From a virus (taxonomy: Duplodnaviria > Heunggongvirae > Uroviricota > Caudoviricetes), in IMG/VR virus record IMGVR_UViG_2537561977_000026, positions 1 to 12,264 of that record: DNA of 12,264 nt; one strand, 5' to 3'. The position numbers were made by a program, and so were the translations under genes. The notes beneath the pieces were generated by a model. That model searched no databases, was not told the origin of the DNA, and saw nothing but the letters and a program-made list of their open reading frames with translations. This document shows positions 3,239-11,964 of the stretch, piece by piece (position 1 is the first letter of the stretch; each line of letters starts with the position of its first letter).

Positions 3239-3526
3239 ATGAAAAAGAAAAATTCTGGCTTTACTGTCAGCGGCCCCGCTCGGCCTGAAATCCGCCCCGG
3301 CGATATTTTCAAAGATAACTACGGCGGCACGATAACGATAAAAGACGTGGAAGAACGGCGCATCACCTACCGCCGTGAAGGCTACGACTATGACTGCGTG
3401 ATGCCTGTTTATCAGTTCCGGCGTGATTTTAAGCTGGTGGGCCATCGTAAAGCCGTAAATCAGAAACGTGCAGCAAGCTATATCCGCAAAATCCGTGAAA
3501 TGCTGGTCGCAGGGGGTAAAAAATGA
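3239..3526 (+). CDS. hypothetical protein (95 aa)
   Basis: SD GGAGAA; its stop overlaps the primase start (ATGA). Basic C-terminus. No family recognised. Confidence 0.5.
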   Translation: MKKKNSGFTVSGPARPEIRPGDIFKDNYGGTITIKDVEERRITYRREGYDYDCVMPVYQFRRDFKLVGHRKAVNQKRAASYIRKIREMLVAGGKK

Positions 3527-4258
3527 AACTGGCACCGAACGTAAAACAGCAGTCACGCGGCATAAAACACAAAGAAACAGAAGTCATTATTTTTGCGGGT
3601 AGTGATGCCTGGTCACACGCAAAACAATGGCAGGAACATGACGCGCGTATGGCCGGAGATAATGAGCCTCCTGTGTGGCTTGGGGAGCAGCAGTTATCCG
3701 AACTGGATAAGCTGCAAATTGTGCCGGAAGGCAGAAAATCCGTGCGCATATTCAAGGCCGGATATCTTGCGCCAGTAATGATAAAGGCGATTGGTCAGAA
3801 GCTGGCGGCGGCAGGCGTACAGGATGCAAATTTTTATCCTGAGGGTATGCACTGCCAGGAGGTGCAGAACTGGCGCGAATATCTGGCCCGTGAACGCCAG
3901 AATCTTTCTGATGGTCTGGTTATTGAGCTTCCGGTAAAGCAAAAAATGCAGCTTTCGCAGATGGCGGACAGTGAGCGCGCGCAGCTGCTTGCCGATCGCT
4001 TTGATGGCGTTTGTGTGCATCCAGAAAGTGAAATCGTTCACGTATGGCGCGGCGGGGTATGGTGTCCGGTCAGCACAATGGAACTTAGCCGCGAAATGGT
4101 GGCGATCTATTCAGAGCACAGGGCCACTTTCAGCAAGCGCGTAATCAATAACGCCGTGGAAGCATTAAAAGTTATTGCCCAGCCAATGGGGGAGCCGTCC
4201 GGCGATTTGTTGCCGTTCGCCAATGGTGCGCTTGACCTGAAAACGGGGGAATTTTCCC

Positions 4259-5552
4259 CTGAGGAATCCCCAGAAAACAAGACAGGCATAGTGAGATGTG
4301 ATCTAATTGATTGTGCTAACAATTTCAAGGAGATCACCACTATGCCTGCACGTTCATTATGCCAAAATTTCCTTAACAACATACTGGCCCCTTTGCATCT
4401 TTACCGTCAAAAATCACTGATTGACGCAACTAATGCTGTAATAAATGGCGCTTCCCTCACACTTACCAGTATCGGGCGTCATTTAACCGGTACGGCATCA
4501 GTTAAAAACAAAATAAAGCGGGTGGATCGACTGTTGGGGAATCGACATTTGCAAAATGAGGTTTCCACCATTTTTCAGCGAATTACCCAAAAGATTACGC
4601 GGGGAATGTCTCGTGTTGTGATACTCATTGACTGGAGTGCTTATCATGCCTCTCGTTTTCAGCTTTTGCGGGCAAGCCTGGCATGTGACGGGCGTTCTTT
4701 ACCGTTGATGAGTTGTGTCGTTCCATCATCACAGACAGCGAATGCAGATGTACATGAGCGTTTTCTGGAATCGCTTGCTGAGTGCTTTTCCCCCGGGACT
4801 GATGTCATTGTTATTACAGATGCCGGTTTTCAGGGGCGATGGTTCCAACAGCTCCGCTCCCGTGGCTGGACCTATATTTGCCGGGTACTGGGCAATCATT
4901 ATTACAATGTTGGTAATGGCTGGGAAAAGGTGTCGGACTCAGGCACAAAAGCATCAACGACAGCAATTTATTTAGGTGAAGGCCTGCTGGGTCGAGATAA
5001 AAATGCACAACATGAAGGGCATTTTTATCTTTATAAAAGTAAGCCTAAAGGTCGTAGATTTAAACGCTCGAAGGAAAGAGCAACCAGACCATCGGTGACG
5101 GCTAAAGCTCGTACTGCCGGGAAATCACCATGGTTTATTTTCACAAACAGTACTGAGTTCTCGCCAAAACAGGTAATGAAATTATACAGCCGTAGAATGC
5201 AAATTGAGCAAAATTTCAGGGATGAAAAAAATCCTCGCTGGGGATTTGGACTACGGTTTGGTGCCAGTCATTCATCCGGGCGGGTCACGGTATTGAGTCT
5301 GATCGCAACATTAGCCAGTATCATTATGTGGTTAAGCGGTTTCAGCCTGGAAAACAAAGGGATACATCATAAATATCAGGCAAATACAGTGAAGCACAGG
5401 CGAGTCATCTCGTTATTAAAACTGGCGGAGAATGTGATTCGACATTCTCCACTCATACTAAACACACTGTCACTTGACGCAGGGCTGAAAGTTCTACAGC
5501 AACGGTATACCAATATGATAATGGTTTACTAAATTTTCTGGGGATCCCTCAG
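4259..5552 (+). mobile_element. IS4-family (IS10-like) insertion sequence, ~1.29 kb
   Basis: Terminal inverted repeats CTGAGGAATCCCCAGAAAAC (4259-4278) and complement of ATTTTCTGGGGATCCCTCAG (5533-5552), 18/20 match. Flanked by direct repeat GGAATTTTCCC (4248-4258 and 5553-5563), consistent with a target-site duplication. Confidence 0.85.
4342..5532 (+). CDS. IS4-family (IS10-like) DDE transposase
   Basis: 396 aa, collinear with IS10 transposase: IKRVDRLLGNRHL, LIDWS, ITDAGF, YSRRMQIEQNFRD, QANTVKHRRV. In the track it appears fused in frame to the primase N-fragment (ORF 3523..5532). Confidence 0.85.
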   Translation: MPARSLCQNFLNNILAPLHLYRQKSLIDATNAVINGASLTLTSIGRHLTGTASVKNKIKRVDRLLGNRHLQNEVSTIFQRITQKITRGMSRVVILIDWSAYHASRFQLLRASLACDGRSLPLMSCVVPSSQTANADVHERFLESLAECFSPGTDVIVITDAGFQGRWFQQLRSRGWTYICRVLGNHYYNVGNGWEKVSDSGTKASTTAIYLGEGLLGRDKNAQHEGHFYLYKSKPKGRRFKRSKERATRPSVTAKARTAGKSPWFIFTNSTEFSPKQVMKLYSRRMQIEQNFRDEKNPRWGFGLRFGASHSSGRVTVLSLIATLASIIMWLSGFSLENKGIHHKYQANTVKHRRVISLLKLAENVIRHSPLILNTLSLDAGLKVLQQRYTNMIMVY

Positions 5553-5974
5553 GGAATTTTCCCCGCACACGCCGGAGAACTGGATCACCACGCACAACGG
5601 CATTGAGTACACGGCACCAGCACCAGGGGAGAACATCCGCGACAACGCTCCAAACTTTCATAAATGGCTTGATCACGCTGCCGGAAAAGATCCGGGCAAG
5701 ATGATGCGTATATGCGCCGCGCTATACATGATTATGGCGAACCGGTACGACTGGCAGATGTTTATTGAGGCCACCGGAGACGGCGGGAGCGGCAAGAGCA
5801 CTTTCACGCACATAGCCAGCCTTCTGGCAGGGAAACAGAACACAGTAAGGCAGTATGACTTTCCGTGAGACAGATGCTGGCCAACGTGGGATATTTAACG
5901 CGGGTTAACATCGTTGTCAGAGCCGCATGGGTGAGCTGTTGCTACACCCCGGTATTTCCACCACGGAGGCCAGC

Positions 5975-7102
5975 ATGAACAACAATAACACATTGTACGT
6001 CGGGTTAGATGTTCACAAAGAATCGATTACTGTCGCTTATGCTATCAATTCAGAACCTGTTGAACTGATGGGTAAAATTGGCACATCACCTACTGATATT
6101 CAGAATCTTTGTAAACGTCTCAGGTCAAAGTCATCGCAGGTCAGTATCGTTTATGAAGCGGGGCCCTGTGGTTATGGACTTTATCGTCGGCTGGTGAAAT
6201 CCGGTTTTGACTGCATGGTCTGCGCCCCCTCACTTATCCCGAAAAAACCGGGGGAGCGGGTTAAAACCGATCGCCGTGATGCCATCAGACTTGTGCGTTC
6301 ACTGCGTGCAGGAGATCTTTCTGCTGTCTACGTACCCGGCATTGAAGATGAGGCATTCCGGGATTTGGCCCGGGCATGGGCATCTGCCCGCGATGATTTA
6401 CGGCATGCAAGGCAACGTCTGAAATCGTTTCTTCTGGTTCATGGGGTCCATTATGTCGGGCGAGCAGATTGGGGCCCTGCACACCGACGCTGGCTCAGCA
6501 AATACTCATTCGAAAGTCCCTGGCGACAATTAGCTTTTGACGAACACCGTCGTACAATAGAAGACCGGCAGGCACAATGTGAACGGCTGGAATCCGCCCT
6601 GAAGGAGGCCGTTACCGAATGGAGGCTGTATCCGGTAGTAGAGGCGCTGCAAGCCATGCGAGGGATTCAGTTTATTACTGCGGTTGGATTAATTTCTGAA
6701 CTGGGTGATCTGACCCGTTTTGAACATCCACGACAACTGATGTCATGGTTTGGTATCACGCCATCAGAATATTCATCGGGTGGAAGCAGACATCAGGGCA
6801 GCATTACCAAAGCCGGAAACAGCTATGCCAGAAAGCTATTGGTCGAGGCAGCGTGGAGTTACCGTCATCCGGCACGCATCAGTCCGGCAATACAAAAAAG
6901 GCAGGAAAATTTACCCCGCCCCGTCATTGACAGAGCATGGGATGCTCAACTCAGGCTTTGTAAGAGGTATCGAAAACTTCAGGCCAAAGGAAAGAATGTC
7001 AATATTACAATTGTTGCTGTTGCACGTGAGCTGGCGGGTTTTATCTGGGATATGGGCCGAATAGCAATGTCTGTCGCACAACAACCACAATGTCACAAAT
7101 AA
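5975..7102 (+). CDS. IS110-family (DEDD) transposase
   Basis: GGAGG 5 nt before ATG 5975. N-terminal LYVGLDVHKESITVA and C-terminal LQAMRGIQFITAVGLISELGDLTRFEHPRQLMSWFGITPSEYSSGGSRHQGSITKAGNSYARKLLVEAAW are IS110/IS116/IS902-type motifs. The track ORF starts at 5927 but 5975 has the SD. Confidence 0.85.
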   Translation: MNNNNTLYVGLDVHKESITVAYAINSEPVELMGKIGTSPTDIQNLCKRLRSKSSQVSIVYEAGPCGYGLYRRLVKSGFDCMVCAPSLIPKKPGERVKTDRRDAIRLVRSLRAGDLSAVYVPGIEDEAFRDLARAWASARDDLRHARQRLKSFLLVHGVHYVGRADWGPAHRRWLSKYSFESPWRQLAFDEHRRTIEDRQAQCERLESALKEAVTEWRLYPVVEALQAMRGIQFITAVGLISELGDLTRFEHPRQLMSWFGITPSEYSSGGSRHQGSITKAGNSYARKLLVEAAWSYRHPARISPAIQKRQENLPRPVIDRAWDAQLRLCKRYRKLQAKGKNVNITIVAVARELAGFIWDMGRIAMSVAQQPQCHK

Positions 7103-7118
7103 AAAATGAGAATAACCA

Positions 7119-7307
7119 GTTCCCTGAAGGCGACGTAGCCCGGTACAAGAGTAACCCACGTTAGCGCTTGGCGACGGCGGAACAAAGCTGATTCGCGACG
7201 TAAGAAAGTGGCAGGCTCATATGACGGACCTCTGTAATGCGGTATCCAACCCGCGAATATCAGCGTGATTCACCGTCGGATTTACTGCTACGTCGCCCTC
7301 AGGGAAT
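7119..7307 (+). ncRNA. candidate bridge/seek RNA of the IS110-family element
   Basis: 19-nt inverted repeat TCCCTGAAGGCGACGTAGC (7121-7139) / GCTACGTCGCCCTCAGGGA (7287-7305), 18/19 pairs, extendable by 2 bp, enclosing ~147 nt. Internal ATATCAGCG (7257-7265) is identical to the IS-end/flank junction at 7363-7371; AGCGCT (7163-7168) matches the right flank. Confidence 0.3.
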
Positions 7308-8116
7308 TAAACCTAAAAAGAAAATCGTCAAAATTAGAGATTCCGGTTTGACACGGAAAGTCATATCAGCGCTGAGATGACATCGCTTGATGATGCTGGT
7401 GGGCGTGCACAGGTTGTCGGGAGTCGTCTTATCGTCCTGGCAGACCAGCCGAAATATACAGGCGAAGGAACGGGCATCAAGAAAATCACGGGCGGCGACC
7501 CCGTGGAAATTAACCCGAAATATGAAAAGCGTTTTACGGCGGTAATCAGGGCGGTGGTGCTGGCAACCAATAACAATCCGATGATATTCACCGAACGGGC
7601 CGGAGGCGTGGCACGTCGTCGCGTGATTTTCCGTTTCGACAATATCGTCAACGAGGCCGAAAAAGACAGGGAACTACCGGAAAAGATTGCGGCTGAAATC
7701 CCCGTCATTATCCGCCGATTACTGGCGAACTTTGCAGACCCTGAAAAGGCGCGGGCTTTACTACTGGAACAGCGTGACGGTGATGAAGCACTGGCGATAA
7801 AGCAGCAAACGGATCCGGTTATTGAGTTTTGCCAGTTCCTGAATTTTCTGGAGGAAGCACGTGGCCTGATGATGGGTGGCGGTGGCGATTCCGTGAAGTA
7901 CACGACCAGAAACAGCCTTTACCGCGTCTATCTGGCGTTTATGGCATACGCAGGCAGAACCAAACCACTAAACGTAAATGACTTTGGCAAGGCCATGAAG
8001 CCAGCCGCAAAAGTTTACGGACATGAATATATTACGCGAAAAATTAATGGAGTGACGCAGACTAACGCAATAACAACCGACGATTGCGACGCGTTTTTAT
8101 AATTTTTGGCAATTGC

Positions 8117-8333
8117 TGTCTACCTGATTACATAAAAGTTGTTTTAATTCAGTGTATTAATTTAGGTAGACAGCTTTTTTTACTGTCTACAAGCTGTCTA
8201 CCTTGTCTACCTGTTTTTGTAGCCAGTCGGAGGGATGGGTAGACATCAGGTAGACAGAGATTTTTTACTGTCTACCACCATAAAACCCGCGTCATTACTA
8301 GCCTGAGCATCCACCAGGTAGATAAGGTAGACA
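8117..8333. repeat. iteron array, candidate replication origin (P4 ori/crr analogue)
   Basis: Octamer TGTCTACC at 8117-8124, 8195-8202, 8204-8211, 8269-8276. Complement GGTAGACA at 8165-8172, 8238-8245, 8249-8256, 8326-8333. Variants at 8184-8191 and 8317-8324. Two palindromic units GTAGACAG-N9/10-CTGTCTAC (8166-8190, 8250-8275). AT-rich spacers. Directly downstream of the primase gene. Confidence 0.6.
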
Positions 8334-8382
8334 AGGTGGGGGTATCTCCAAAACTTTTTAAACGAGGGGGGTAAAAACAAAA

Positions 8383-8640
8383 ATGCACACATCAGGAAAA
8401 CTTAACAATCAGAAGAAGCAACATAACCGCGCCATTGACCTTACAGAGCACTGGCTGAGGGTGGCGATAAAAATCATCGACCGCAACGCGGGAGAAGGAT
8501 ACGCGAAAGCACATCCTGAACTGATAAGCGCATTCATGACCACGGCGGCAGCAAACTTTGCCACGCTGACAGAGCGGGAGATTGCCGAAGCGGAACAGGT
8601 GACAACCATCAACGTTAAAACCGGAGAGCAGACAGCATGA
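8383..8640 (+). CDS. hypothetical protein (85 aa)
   Basis: SD GAGGGGGG before ATG 8383; its stop overlaps the next start (ATGA at 8637). No family recognised. Confidence 0.5.
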   Translation: MHTSGKLNNQKKQHNRAIDLTEHWLRVAIKIIDRNAGEGYAKAHPELISAFMTTAAANFATLTEREIAEAEQVTTINVKTGEQTA

Positions 8641-9020
8641 CAGCACAGATAGCGGCTTACGGGCGGCTGGTGGCTGACCCGCAGTTAAAGACCACCAGCA
8701 AAGGGACACAAATGGCGATGGCGAGTATGGCGGTTCCCCTGCCGTGCAGCCAGGCAGATGACGGAACGGCGACGATGTGGTTATCCGTCCTGGCGTTTGG
8801 CAGACAGGCCGACGCACTGGCAAAGCACCACAAAGGCGAACTGGTGAGCGTGGCGGGTAACATGCAGGTAAGCCAGTGGACAGACCAGAACGGCGAAACG
8901 CGGCAGGGCTGGCAGGTCATCGCAGACAGCGTAATCAGTGCGCGAACGGCGCGACCGGGCGGCAGCCGACGCAAAACCACAGGCACACAGGGTAATCAGC
9001 CACCAGCGGGAGTACGGTGA
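8637..9020 (+). CDS. SSB-like OB-fold protein lacking the acidic C-terminal tail
   Basis: Collinear with E. coli SSB: IAAYGRLVADPQLK vs ILVGNLGQDPEVRY; TMWLSVLAFGRQADALAKHHKGELVSVAGNMQVSQWTDQNGETR vs [45 protein letters not shown]. Ends ...GNQPPAGVR with no DDDIPF-type tail. Confidence 0.6.
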   Translation: MTAQIAAYGRLVADPQLKTTSKGTQMAMASMAVPLPCSQADDGTATMWLSVLAFGRQADALAKHHKGELVSVAGNMQVSQWTDQNGETRQGWQVIADSVISARTARPGGSRRKTTGTQGNQPPAGVR

Positions 9021-9319
9021 TGATATTCCGTTCTGAGGGGGTGAGGATGGTACATGACCGCATAGCGGAGGAACTCGAAGCGAAAGGCTTTTACCGGAGG
9101 GCGTCGGCGCGATGGGGTGAAGTCATGCAGCTGGTGGAGACAGACAAAGAACGGCATCAGGTTACGATGCGACGGCTGGAATGTTCCAGGAAGGCACAGA
9201 GGCCACCGGAGCCGCCGGATAACTTAGGAGACCTGAAAAAAGCAGTAGATCGCACTTATGCCGAAATGGGTATGGGTGGTGCTGGTGATGAAATATGGCG
9301 CAATTACCAGGACAGCTAA
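9017..9319 (+). CDS. PerC/ANR-like small transcriptional regulator
   Basis: EELEAKGFYRRASARWGEVMQLVETDKERHQVTMRRLEC follows the PerC/ANR pattern (LE..G.WRRA..W......ETDEER......R..C). The start may instead be ATG 9046, which has a GAGGGGGTGAGG SD. Confidence 0.45.
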   Translation: MMIFRSEGVRMVHDRIAEELEAKGFYRRASARWGEVMQLVETDKERHQVTMRRLECSRKAQRPPEPPDNLGDLKKAVDRTYAEMGMGGAGDEIWRNYQDS

Positions 9320-9560: not shown

Positions 9561-9767
9561 ATGGCAGAAGAGAAAAAAGGTGGGGTTACAGTCTACATAA
9601 GCCCCGACATTGTGGAGGCACTCAAGGAACGCCACCAGCAGAACGTAAAAGCGAGCATTGCGGCAGGACTTGATCCGCTGGCAATGGTTGAGCCGTCAAC
9701 AGGCTGGCAGGTGCGCGCCTATTTACGTGCGGCGTTGGGCATGAATCAGACTCATGGGGGTGAATAA
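9561..9767 (+). CDS. hypothetical protein (68 aa), first gene of head operon
   Basis: SD AGAGGA before ATG 9561; stop overlaps the capsid gene start (TAATG). Confidence 0.5.
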   Translation: MAEEKKGGVTVYISPDIVEALKERHQQNVKASIAAGLDPLAMVEPSTGWQVRAYLRAALGMNQTHGGE

Positions 9768-10821
9768 TGGCAGGTAAAGCAACGGCTCTTAACACTAACC
9801 AGCTTTTCGCGTACCTGAATCGTGGTGATATTGCTGAATTTAAATTCAGTCCGCTGTTTACCACGCTGTTTTTCCCGAACGTGGCGACATTCAGCACCCA
9901 GAACATCATGCTGGATACCCTGGACATTGAAGAAGTCACCATGTCAGCGTTTTGTTCGCCTATGGTGGGTAGTCAGGTCCAGCGCGATAAAGGGTACGAA
10001 ACCAGCACGATTAAACCTGGCTACATGAAGCCAAAGCACGAAATCGATCCAACAAAAACCATTATGCGCATGGCTGGAGAAGATCCGGCACAGCTTAACG
10101 ACCCTACATACCGCCGTATGCGTCTGATTACTGGCAACATGCGCCGCCAGGTCAACGCCATTAAAGCGCGCGTCGAATGGCTGGCGGTGAATGCGGTCAC
10201 GACCGGAAAAACATCATTGAGGGCGAAGGCATAGAACGCTATGAAATTGACTGGAAGATACCGGAAAGCAATATCATAGTGCAGGTCAAAGGCTGTAAAT
10301 GGTCTGAACAGGACAAAGAAACACACGATCCAATCTATGACATCGAGCTTTATGCGGATCAGGGCAGTTGCCCCGCCAACGTCATGATTATGGGCGCTGA
10401 TGTATGGCGCACGTTACGCAGCTTTAAAAAATTCCGCGAGCTGTACGATCTTTCCCGTGGTTCAGAATCCGCCGCCGAACTGGCGTGTAAAAACCTGGGC
10501 GAAGTGGTGAGCTTTAAAGGCTATCTGGGCGATATTGCCCTTATCGTCTATTCCGGCAAATACGCCGACAGCGACGGCACCGAAAAATATTTCCTTGAGC
10601 CTGATTTGCTTGTCCTGGGCAACACCAACAATAAAGGGCTGGTGGCCTATGGTGCGATTATGGATCAGGACGCAGTAAGAACGGGCGCAACGCAAAACAT
10701 GTTTTACCCGAAAAACTGGATTGAGGACGGCGATCCGGCGATTGAGTACGTGCAGACGCACAGCGCACCGCAGCCGGTTCCGGCAGATATTCGCAAATTT
10801 GTTACCGTCAAAATTGGTTAA
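9767..10821 (+). pseudogene. lambda gpE-type major capsid protein, -1 frameshift in an A5 run
   Basis: ORFs 9767..10234 (frame 2) and 10177..10821 (frame 1) together are collinear with lambda E: FKFSPLF..LFF, IKPGYMKPKHEIDP, DPTYRRMRLITGNMRRQVNAIKARVEWLAVNAVTTGK, then DPIYDIELYA...SRGSESAAELACKNLGEVVSFKGYLGDIALIVYSGKY...LVLGNTNNKGLVAYGAIMDQDA...FYPKNWIEDGDPAIEY. Restoring A6 at 10206-10210 gives one ~352-aa ORF. Confidence 0.85.
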
Positions 10822-11600: not shown

Positions 11601-11622
11601 GCCGGAGAAATCCGGCTTTTTT
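11601..11622 (+). terminator. rho-independent terminator, same module as 9326-9348
   Basis: GCCGGA-GAAA-TCCGGC followed by T6; 24/25 identical to the terminator at 9326-9350. Confidence 0.6.
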
Positions 11623-11704
11623 ACGGGGCCTTTCCGGCATATGGACCCGTTACGGGGCGGGAGCGGCGCAGAATTTCACTATTTATGAAAATTTTTCGGA
11701 AACC

Positions 11705-11802
11705 ATGTCCGGTTTTTCTTGGAGTTAACTCTTTGAAAAATATAAAAATTCACTTTCTGTGAACCGGACGTGCGCAAAAATTGAACACTCAAACCGGACA
11801 TA
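11705..11802. promoter_or_regulatory. candidate regulated promoter with three ACCGGAC boxes
   Basis: -35 TTGGAG (11719-11724), 16-bp spacer, -10 TATAAA (11741-11746). Box AAACCGGACATG in reverse at 11705-11716 and forward at 11761-11772 (GAACCGGACGTG) and 11791-11802 (AAACCGGACATA). Confidence 0.35.
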
Positions 11803-11964
11803 TATGCCGCGTTTCATAAAGTTGTTCGCAAGATGCATGTTTAAAACGCATGAGGGGAGATTTTTTGGCGAGGTGAACAGTGGCTACTCAGACTGAAGTT
11901 GCCAGGCATTTGAGTCTGACCGATCGCCAGCTTCGCAGATTACAGAAATTGTTCCCCCATCACT

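Follow-up and report, generated by a model that had tools for sequence, protein, structure and literature searches.

This locus raises the question of what the repeats between a primase remnant and orf85 are for, where copies of one 8-mer are crowded in both orientations, and whether they mark a replication origin as originally predicted. The window, by which we mean the whole 12,264-bp stretch of DNA that was analyzed, contains eight exact copies of GGTAGACA/TGTCTACC. All eight fall within 8117-8333, starting at 8117(-), 8165(+), 8195(-), 8204(-), 8238(+), 8249(+), 8269(-) and 8326(+). Dinucleotide-preserving shuffles of the window gave a mean of 0.17 exact copies and a maximum of 2. Two further copies with one mismatch are found inside the array, TGTAGACA at 8184(-) and GGTAGATA at 8317(+); the remaining six one-mismatch octamers are singly scattered over the window outside it. 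The hexamer core GGTAGA occurs nine times in the window, each time inside the array. The array is very probably an iteron-type replication origin (ori) of a Gram-negative phage-inducible chromosomal island (PICI) of the EcCICFT073 type. Its parts are as follows.

8107-8382, plus strand: whole ori segment, intergenic, from the Pri-Rep stop codon to the orf85 start codon; counterpart of the segment removed in EcCICFT073 pri-Δori
8117-8124, minus strand: left iteron TGTCTACC, a single site here and a tandem doublet in relatives
8125-8164: AT-rich spacer of 40 bp, 82% A+T, the presumed DNA-unwinding region
8165-8211: central-left iteron block, with GGTAGACA (plus) at 8165, T7, TGTCTACA (minus) at 8184, TGTCTACC (minus) at 8195 and TGTCTACC (minus) at 8204
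8238-8276: central-right iteron block, with GGTAGACA (plus) at 8238, GGTAGACA (plus) at 8249, T6 and TGTCTACC (minus) at 8269
8277-8316: non-iteron spacer of 40 bp, a partly conserved block reading AAA[C/G]CC...CATTACTGG in E. coli
8317-8333, plus strand: right-end tandem iteron pair, GGTAGATA then GGTAGACA, 9 bp apart
8350-8362: A4-C-T5-A3 tract AAAACTTTTTAAA, 3' of the last iteron pair and kept in related origins

From one iteron start to the next, the whole series runs 48, 19, 11, 9, 34, 11, 20, 48 and 9 bp. Sites 8165 and 8184 of the central-left block form a 27-bp palindromic unit (8165-8191) that reads GGTAGACAG-C-T7-A-CTGTCTAC, and sites 8249 and 8269 of the central-right block form a second (8249-8276). 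In both units the arms GGTAGACAG/CTGTCTAC surround a T6-T7 tract, T7 at 8175-8181 and T6 at 8261-8266. The original prediction had described at least ten copies of the octamer, two palindromic units of about 25 bp, tandem copies spaced 9-11 bp apart and T-rich tracts between copies, and each of these descriptions is borne out, the ten copies being the eight exact and two one-mismatch sites and the tandem spacings measuring 9 and 11 bp from start to start. The array is intergenic, lying in the 280-bp gap between the end of the primase C-terminal ORF (8102) and the start of orf85 (8383), with its first iteron immediately 3' of the former. A drop in G+C, to ~37%, extends across the array stretch. 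One iteron stands to the left of the AT-rich spacer (two in relatives) and nine to its right, which agrees with the two iteron sets around an AT-rich region that mark PICI origins of the EcCICFT073 type.

Judged from its genes, the element around the array is an EcCICFT073-type Gram-negative PICI, a phage satellite. The following features were located in the window.

348-1115: integrase fragment (Pfam), the int ORF apparently truncated (255 aa)
3239-3526: DUF4222 (Pfam)
3523-8102, plus strand: pri-rep gene in three pieces, 3523-4259, 5552-5849 and 7368-8102
3523-5532: D5_N fused in frame to a DDE transposase (Pfam)
5927-7102: IS110-family transposase (Pfam)
7377-8102: DUF5906 and Pox_D5 tail (Pfam)
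7809-8075, plus strand: winged-helix (Pox_D5) origin-binding domain within the Pri-Rep remnant, presumably the part that reads the iterons
8383-8640, plus strand: orf85, neighbour of the origin and not part of it
8637-9020, plus strand: SSB (Pfam), likewise a neighbour and not part of the origin
9017-9319: PerC (Pfam)
9767-10821: lambda-E-type capsid gene, split in two (Pfam)

Homologues of int, DUF4222, pri, SSB, PerC, capsid and decoration genes are present, and the order DUF4222, pri, orf85, SSB, PerC, capsid, decoration protein is that of EcCICFT073 (NC_004431 1377749-1389210, coordinates from the supplement of PMC6092414). An intact relative lies between cspD and clpS in E. coli Combat2C1, where int, an HTH regulator, an Icd-like gene, DUF4222 and a 582-aa 'DNA primase family protein' are followed, 3' of the primase, by a 288-bp gap, an 85-aa protein, SSB, capsid, decoration protein and small terminase; this gene order is the published Gram-negative PICI layout. 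When the primase tail, gap and orf85 were searched by megablast against 5,426 complete E. coli genomes, 438 genomes gave matches of at least 80% coverage, the best being 96.5% identical, and some genomes held up to 6 matching places. Queried as a whole against phage genomes by megablast, the window returned only ~100-bp matches near 11617-11951 and none at the array. At 11617-11951 the short matches are to lambdoid Escherichia phages, in their terminase Nu1/cos region, at 83-92% identity; this stretch is probably the island's cos site for hijacking helper-phage packaging, as described for EcCICFT073. An Rfam scan of the whole window gave zero family matches.

The pri-rep gene is split by two insertions, one IS4-like at 4260-5551 and one IS110-like at 5850-7367, as delimited by blastn against EcCICFT073 and by Pfam, which matches DDE_Tnp_1, Transposase_20 and DEDD_Tnp_IS110 in the inserted DNA. 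The IS4-like insertion yields the in-frame D5_N-transposase fusion ORF, and no intact Pri-Rep is encoded in cis within the window. E. coli VL40 carries the same two-insertion layout, where the elements are annotated as IS421 and ISSso6. The broken gene is a defect of the window copy and no bar to assigning the element to the family. The primase tail of the window (241 aa) is 98% identical to residues 344-584 of EcCICFT073 Pri-Rep, which has the accession WP_000761835.1, is encoded at 5242-6996 of the EcCICFT073 locus (L004), is annotated as a primase and contains D5_N, DUF5906 (SF3 helicase) and Pox_D5 domains; its first ~150 residues are without Pfam assignment. Residues 145-233 of the C-terminal ORF in the window match PDB 1KA8, the crystallised origin-binding domain of P4 α (E=2e-6), so that a C-terminal origin-binding domain of the α type is present, and Pfam Pox_D5 also matches the remnant. 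Elsewhere in the island, the capsid homologue (c1499 in EcCICFT073) consists of two overlapping ORFs, which suggests a frameshift and is a further sign of island decay.

Fillol-Salom et al. 2018 (ISME J, PMC6092414) reported that PICIs carry a replication origin after pri-rep, and Fig. 2 of that paper covers such origins in E. coli PICIs, EcCICFT073 among them. Plasmids with EcCICFT073 pri-ori, pri-Δori or Δpri-ori were scored there for maintenance at restrictive temperature. The pri gene plus the ori segment sustained the plasmid where its own thermosensitive replicon fails, and deletion of either pri or ori led to a significant fall in colonies, described as a reduction and not as abolition (PMC6092414). 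In order to delimit the published 'ori', primers from the supplement of that paper were mapped onto CFT073. Primer rep-1m maps to L004 5198; rep-3c, the end of the Δori clone, to L004 6980-7000, just past the pri stop codon and equivalent to window 8086-8106; and rep-2c, the end of the ori clone, to L004 7287-7308, in the first codons of orf85. One published pri-deletion primer contains CAGGTAGACAGGGTAGACAGC. From these primer positions the deleted 'ori' is L004 7001-7308, corresponding to window 8107 to about 8404, and the two segments can be aligned over their full length with octamers at corresponding positions. Because of the primer mapping and the alignment, the array can be recognized as homologous to a known origin whose function had been put to the test before. 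The call of a candidate origin therefore holds, the array being homologous to a segment whose deletion impaired the EcCICFT073 pri-ori replicon. The novelty that the call implied fails, as the feature is the published ori type of a well-studied satellite family, and in later literature (PMC10111431) 'ori downstream of pri' counts among the standard features of PICIs. Likeness to the EcCICFT073 ori extends to the position 3' of pri-rep, the word GGTAGACA/TGTCTACC at the same sites, the AT-rich spacer and the 98% identical initiator domain. However, in the window copy one of the two left-end iterons is missing, the spacers are ~10-40% divergent, and the initiator gene is inactivated by the IS4-like and IS110-like insertions.

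Whether the window array is by now a dead relic, that is, a former origin without present activity, is an even call, and such a state would be compatible with the origin reading since it concerns activity and not identity. The splitting of pri-rep by two IS elements, the split capsid gene and the loss of one iteron all favor a relic. However, 10 of the 11 canonical sites and the AT-rich spacer are intact, and the Pri-Rep fragments still have 98% identity to the functional protein, from which the decay can be considered recent. Additionally, Pri-Rep could come from another island with the same specificity in the same genome, and some genomes do have several matching places. The left doublet, which is found in all relatives (for example L001 9318-9334 and L004 7011-7027), has been cut to one site by a 9-bp deletion in the window. 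This loss is consistent with slippage between tandem repeats, and the same 9-bp loss was found in none of the 5,426 complete E. coli genomes. With its initiator broken by two IS elements the window segment is left as an orphan origin, whose firing would require Pri-Rep from elsewhere in trans, and activity of this copy is doubtful. For annotation purposes, EcCICFT073-type PICI ori is a fitting label for the 8107-8382 gap, and the island can be entered as a decayed satellite with a dead initiator.

Conservation of the array was examined through a primase-tail scan using one genome per species, which gave 14 loci, with 97% amino acid identity in Shigella flexneri and 57-67% in Rosenbergiella, Pantoea, Xenorhabdus, Symbiopectobacterium and Providencia. 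Wherever the match extends to the gene's end, the stop codon is followed after 15-36 bp by a GGTAGA/TCTACC array. Fifteen origins from the Escherichia/Shigella group, Rosenbergiella, Xenorhabdus and Symbiopectobacterium share one scaffold of 11-13 sites after the primase stop codon, which can be written << AT-rich > <<< >> < spacer >>, and in which two sites point left ahead of an AT-rich gap of ~38 bp, beyond which one site points right, three left, two or three right and one left, before a spacer of ~38 bp and two last sites pointing right. Of the 12 GGTAGA copies in EcCICFT073 and its flanks, 11 are inside the array. Comparison with the iterons downstream of related primases, a check put forward with the original prediction, thus finds arrays on the same scaffold in 15 origins, and the repeats are present in intact homologous elements.

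Among nine representatives, hexamer core columns have a mean conservation of 0.946 (53 of 66 invariant), octamer positions 7-8 a mean of 0.71 (1 of 18 invariant) and spacer columns a mean of 0.646 (17 of 138 invariant). A one-sided Mann-Whitney test of hexamer versus spacer columns gave p ~4e-19, which, the columns not being independent, is an indication of effect size only. The comparison points to selection acting on the sites. Because the hexamer columns are conserved and positions 7-8 drift, GGTAGA appears to be the recognised unit. The octamer proposed earlier as the repeat unit is therefore present as a word, but the conserved unit is the hexamer and not the full octamer. The last two bases of the octamer vary by lineage, being CA in E. 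coli, TA in Xenorhabdus and Pantoea, and GA in Symbiopectobacterium. Two loci in Pantoea stewartii (L010, L011) contain only the first half of the scaffold, with its first six sites, and two in Xenorhabdus (L013, L021) have an internal deletion in which the central block is gone. These shortened origins may be decayed origins or minimal functional variants.

The position of the array immediately upstream of orf85, together with the operator-like appearance of the T-tract palindromic units, would also fit operator or regulatory sites for the promoter of the orf85-SSB-PerC genes, an explanation that we regard as highly improbable. No σ70-like promoter was found in a scan of 7900-8700, where shuffles gave a mean of 1.1, and the homologous segment of EcCICFT073 acts in cis for plasmid maintenance. 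The repeats can also be separated from the genes behind them. Four E. coli islands that match only the orf85-SSB part of the query were fetched and their gaps were read, with the following initiators and repeats.

RepA-type helicase (as in EcCIO42), strain 042 (L023) and strain CM2 (L025): repeat AAAGTGAG
DUF927 protein (L024): repeat TGGGAC(A/G)AC
Primase 51% identical to P4 α, E. coli D8 (L026): repeat TGTTCACC, the P4 type-1 word

These variants resemble the window island in occupying the same island slot with the same downstream orf85-SSB genes, and differ from it in the repeat word, with zero copies of GGTAGA in the four gaps. Homologous orf85-SSB genes are thus found behind four different initiator/iteron types, and entirely different words precede them when the initiator differs. 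Conversely, one locus (L005) has a CFT073-type primase and a GGTAGA-core array yet other downstream genes, and islands in Xenorhabdus and Rosenbergiella have kept the GGTAGA array with unrelated downstream sequence. Because the word changes with the initiator and not with orf85-SSB, the repeats track the initiator and not the downstream operon, as would be expected of an initiator-iteron pair. The operator alternative, which had been named alongside the original prediction, is accordingly not upheld, as islands with the same operon and another initiator have other repeats.

P4 α reportedly binds the type-1 repeats of both ori and crr, in work attributed to Ziegelin and colleagues (1993, 1995) and Yeo and colleagues (2002). 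The GenBank record of P4 annotates type-1 repeats and places crr directly downstream of α and ori ~4.5 kb away. A P4-like organisation had been claimed for the array, and this likeness is real in several respects. Residues 141-573 of EcCICFT073 Pri-Rep align with residues 324-756 of P4 α at 41% identity, so that the initiators are homologous over the helicase and origin-binding domains. In each system the words are 8 bp long, occur in either orientation and are spaced 9-11 bp apart where in tandem, and in P4 it is crr that lies directly downstream of the initiator gene. As had also been claimed, the octamer is a different one, TGTCTACC in the window versus TGTTCACC in P4, the two differing at two central positions. 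The P4 word is absent from the array and occurs in the window as a single stray at 11872, which is the chance level. Furthermore, P4 has a bipartite ori and crr several kb apart, whereas the window and EcCICFT073 each have one hexamer cluster, and Pfam finds Zn-ribbon and Toprim primase domains in P4 α but neither in EcCICFT073 Pri-Rep. The element is a PICI and not a P4-like satellite, and identity of the array as a P4 ori/crr was rejected on account of the different word, the one cluster and the initiator lacking Zn-ribbon and Toprim domains.

That the array is instead a cis-acting replication enhancer like P4 crr, with the ori proper elsewhere in the island, would agree with crr and not ori being the P4 element directly downstream of α and with the crr-unit-like right end (a tandem pair, then an A/T tract), but is most unlikely given that neither the window nor intact EcCICFT073 contains a second hexamer cluster and that the pri gene and ori segment alone sustained the plasmid in the PMC6092414 test.

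Origins of the SaPIs offer a second comparison. According to PMC9371898, SaPI Reps are SF3 helicases that load themselves and bind iterons through a C-terminal winged-helix domain, the iterons being placed shortly after rep to either side of an AT-rich region. As in SaPIs, the iterons of the window origin follow the initiator gene directly and form two opposed sets with an AT-rich region between them. However, SaPIs belong to Gram-positive hosts, their iterons (words of 5-6 nt) are unrelated in sequence, and their proteins bear only a remote similarity. The helicase part weakly matched 7OLA/7OM0, a chain of 797 aa that was deposited under the name 'DNA primase'. An iteron plasmid oriV of the RepA/π/TrfA type, with 17-22-bp direct repeats and DnaA boxes, was rejected as an identity for the array, where the words are 6-8 bp, occur in both orientations and are not accompanied by a conserved DnaA box. 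A search for DnaA boxes (TTWTNCACA, up to one mismatch) found none in the window origin and none conserved across relatives.

By analogy, the iteron-type origin proposed here would work like the P4 α/iteron and SaPI Rep/iteron systems. Upon helper-phage induction the island would produce Pri-Rep, an SF3 (D5/P4-α-like) helicase with a C-terminal winged-helix origin-binding domain. This domain would bind the GGTAGA-core iterons in both orientations on either side of the 82% A+T spacer, and multimers on sites phased by 9-11 bp would melt the AT-rich region, probably at 8125-8164, possibly assisted by IHF bending. Pri-Rep would then load itself as the replicative helicase, and the excised circle would start replicating. 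Pri-Rep-dependent replication has been published for the EcCICFT073 homologue; for the window segment it is predicted from homology to the tested segment, the conserved sites and scaffold, the co-variation of word and initiator, and domain homology to P4 α.

The possible role of IHF is suggested by a consensus-like motif, ATTCAGTGTATTA, at window 8147-8159 in the AT-rich spacer. Of 18 related origins, 16 have a match to the IHF consensus WATCARNNNNTTR, with up to one mismatch, at this same position; loci with the motif at the same offset include L001, L002, L004, L006-L012, L014-L016, L020 and L026. In Rosenbergiella, and in the D8 origin with its P4 word, the motif fits the consensus exactly. 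A single match has a probability of ~22% by chance in sequence of that composition, and it is only the positional conservation that suggests a functional site.

The D8 island itself (L026 2649-2985) carries exact TGTTCACC sites on the same 11-12-site scaffold as the GGTAGA origin, an apparent word swap, so that the D8 type matches the window's site scaffold as well as its island slot. When the origin-binding domains of GGTAGA-type and GGTGAA-type proteins were aligned, a framework common to both was evident, with group-specific stretches, FGKAMKPAAKVYG versus FGLGLPVMLKEYG and TRKxKGVTQTN versus KRHTKQGIQTN, which may be specificity determinants. A broader proposal, which we put forward tentatively as possible but rather unlikely, is that PICI origins of this lineage have a fixed scaffold of ~11 sites (<< AT/IHF-like > <<< >> < spacer >>) in which only the word changes, co-evolving with the winged-helix domain of the initiator, and that a related island could still activate the IS-orphaned window origin in trans, in which case this origin would behave as a hitchhiker or would draw off initiator protein as a sink. 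If this were true, the GGTAGA type of the window and the GGTGAA type of D8, with its P4 word, would be a natural pair for origin-specificity switching, and would also help in learning how satellites that share a host evade cross-activation or turn it to their advantage. Having the P4 word and the GGTAGA word in origins of one scaffold would in any case be convenient for studies of initiator-iteron specificity and satellite cross-talk. The comparisons add to the published picture the hexamer core, the scaffold across several Enterobacterales genera and the tracking of word with initiator type; they leave the existing picture of PICI origins unaltered.

Hairpins in and near the array were also considered. 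A weak terminator-like hairpin at 8337-8350, from the scan of 7900-8700, is at chance level and is not conserved in EcCICFT073. A conserved hairpin in 8277-8316 was rejected, as stems of the GCCA-N4-TGGC type that could be drawn by eye in some relatives were inconsistent and absent from the window. The A4-C-T5-A3 tract may have some role in the origin; in P4 crr (L022 4291-4590), every unit likewise has an A-run/T-run tract of this kind after its last tandem pair. The spacer at 8277-8316, between the ninth canonical site (8269-8276) and the right-end pair, is unlike the other spacers in that an AAAGCC... block is kept across genera, with its non-iteron conserved columns at alignment positions 207-233.
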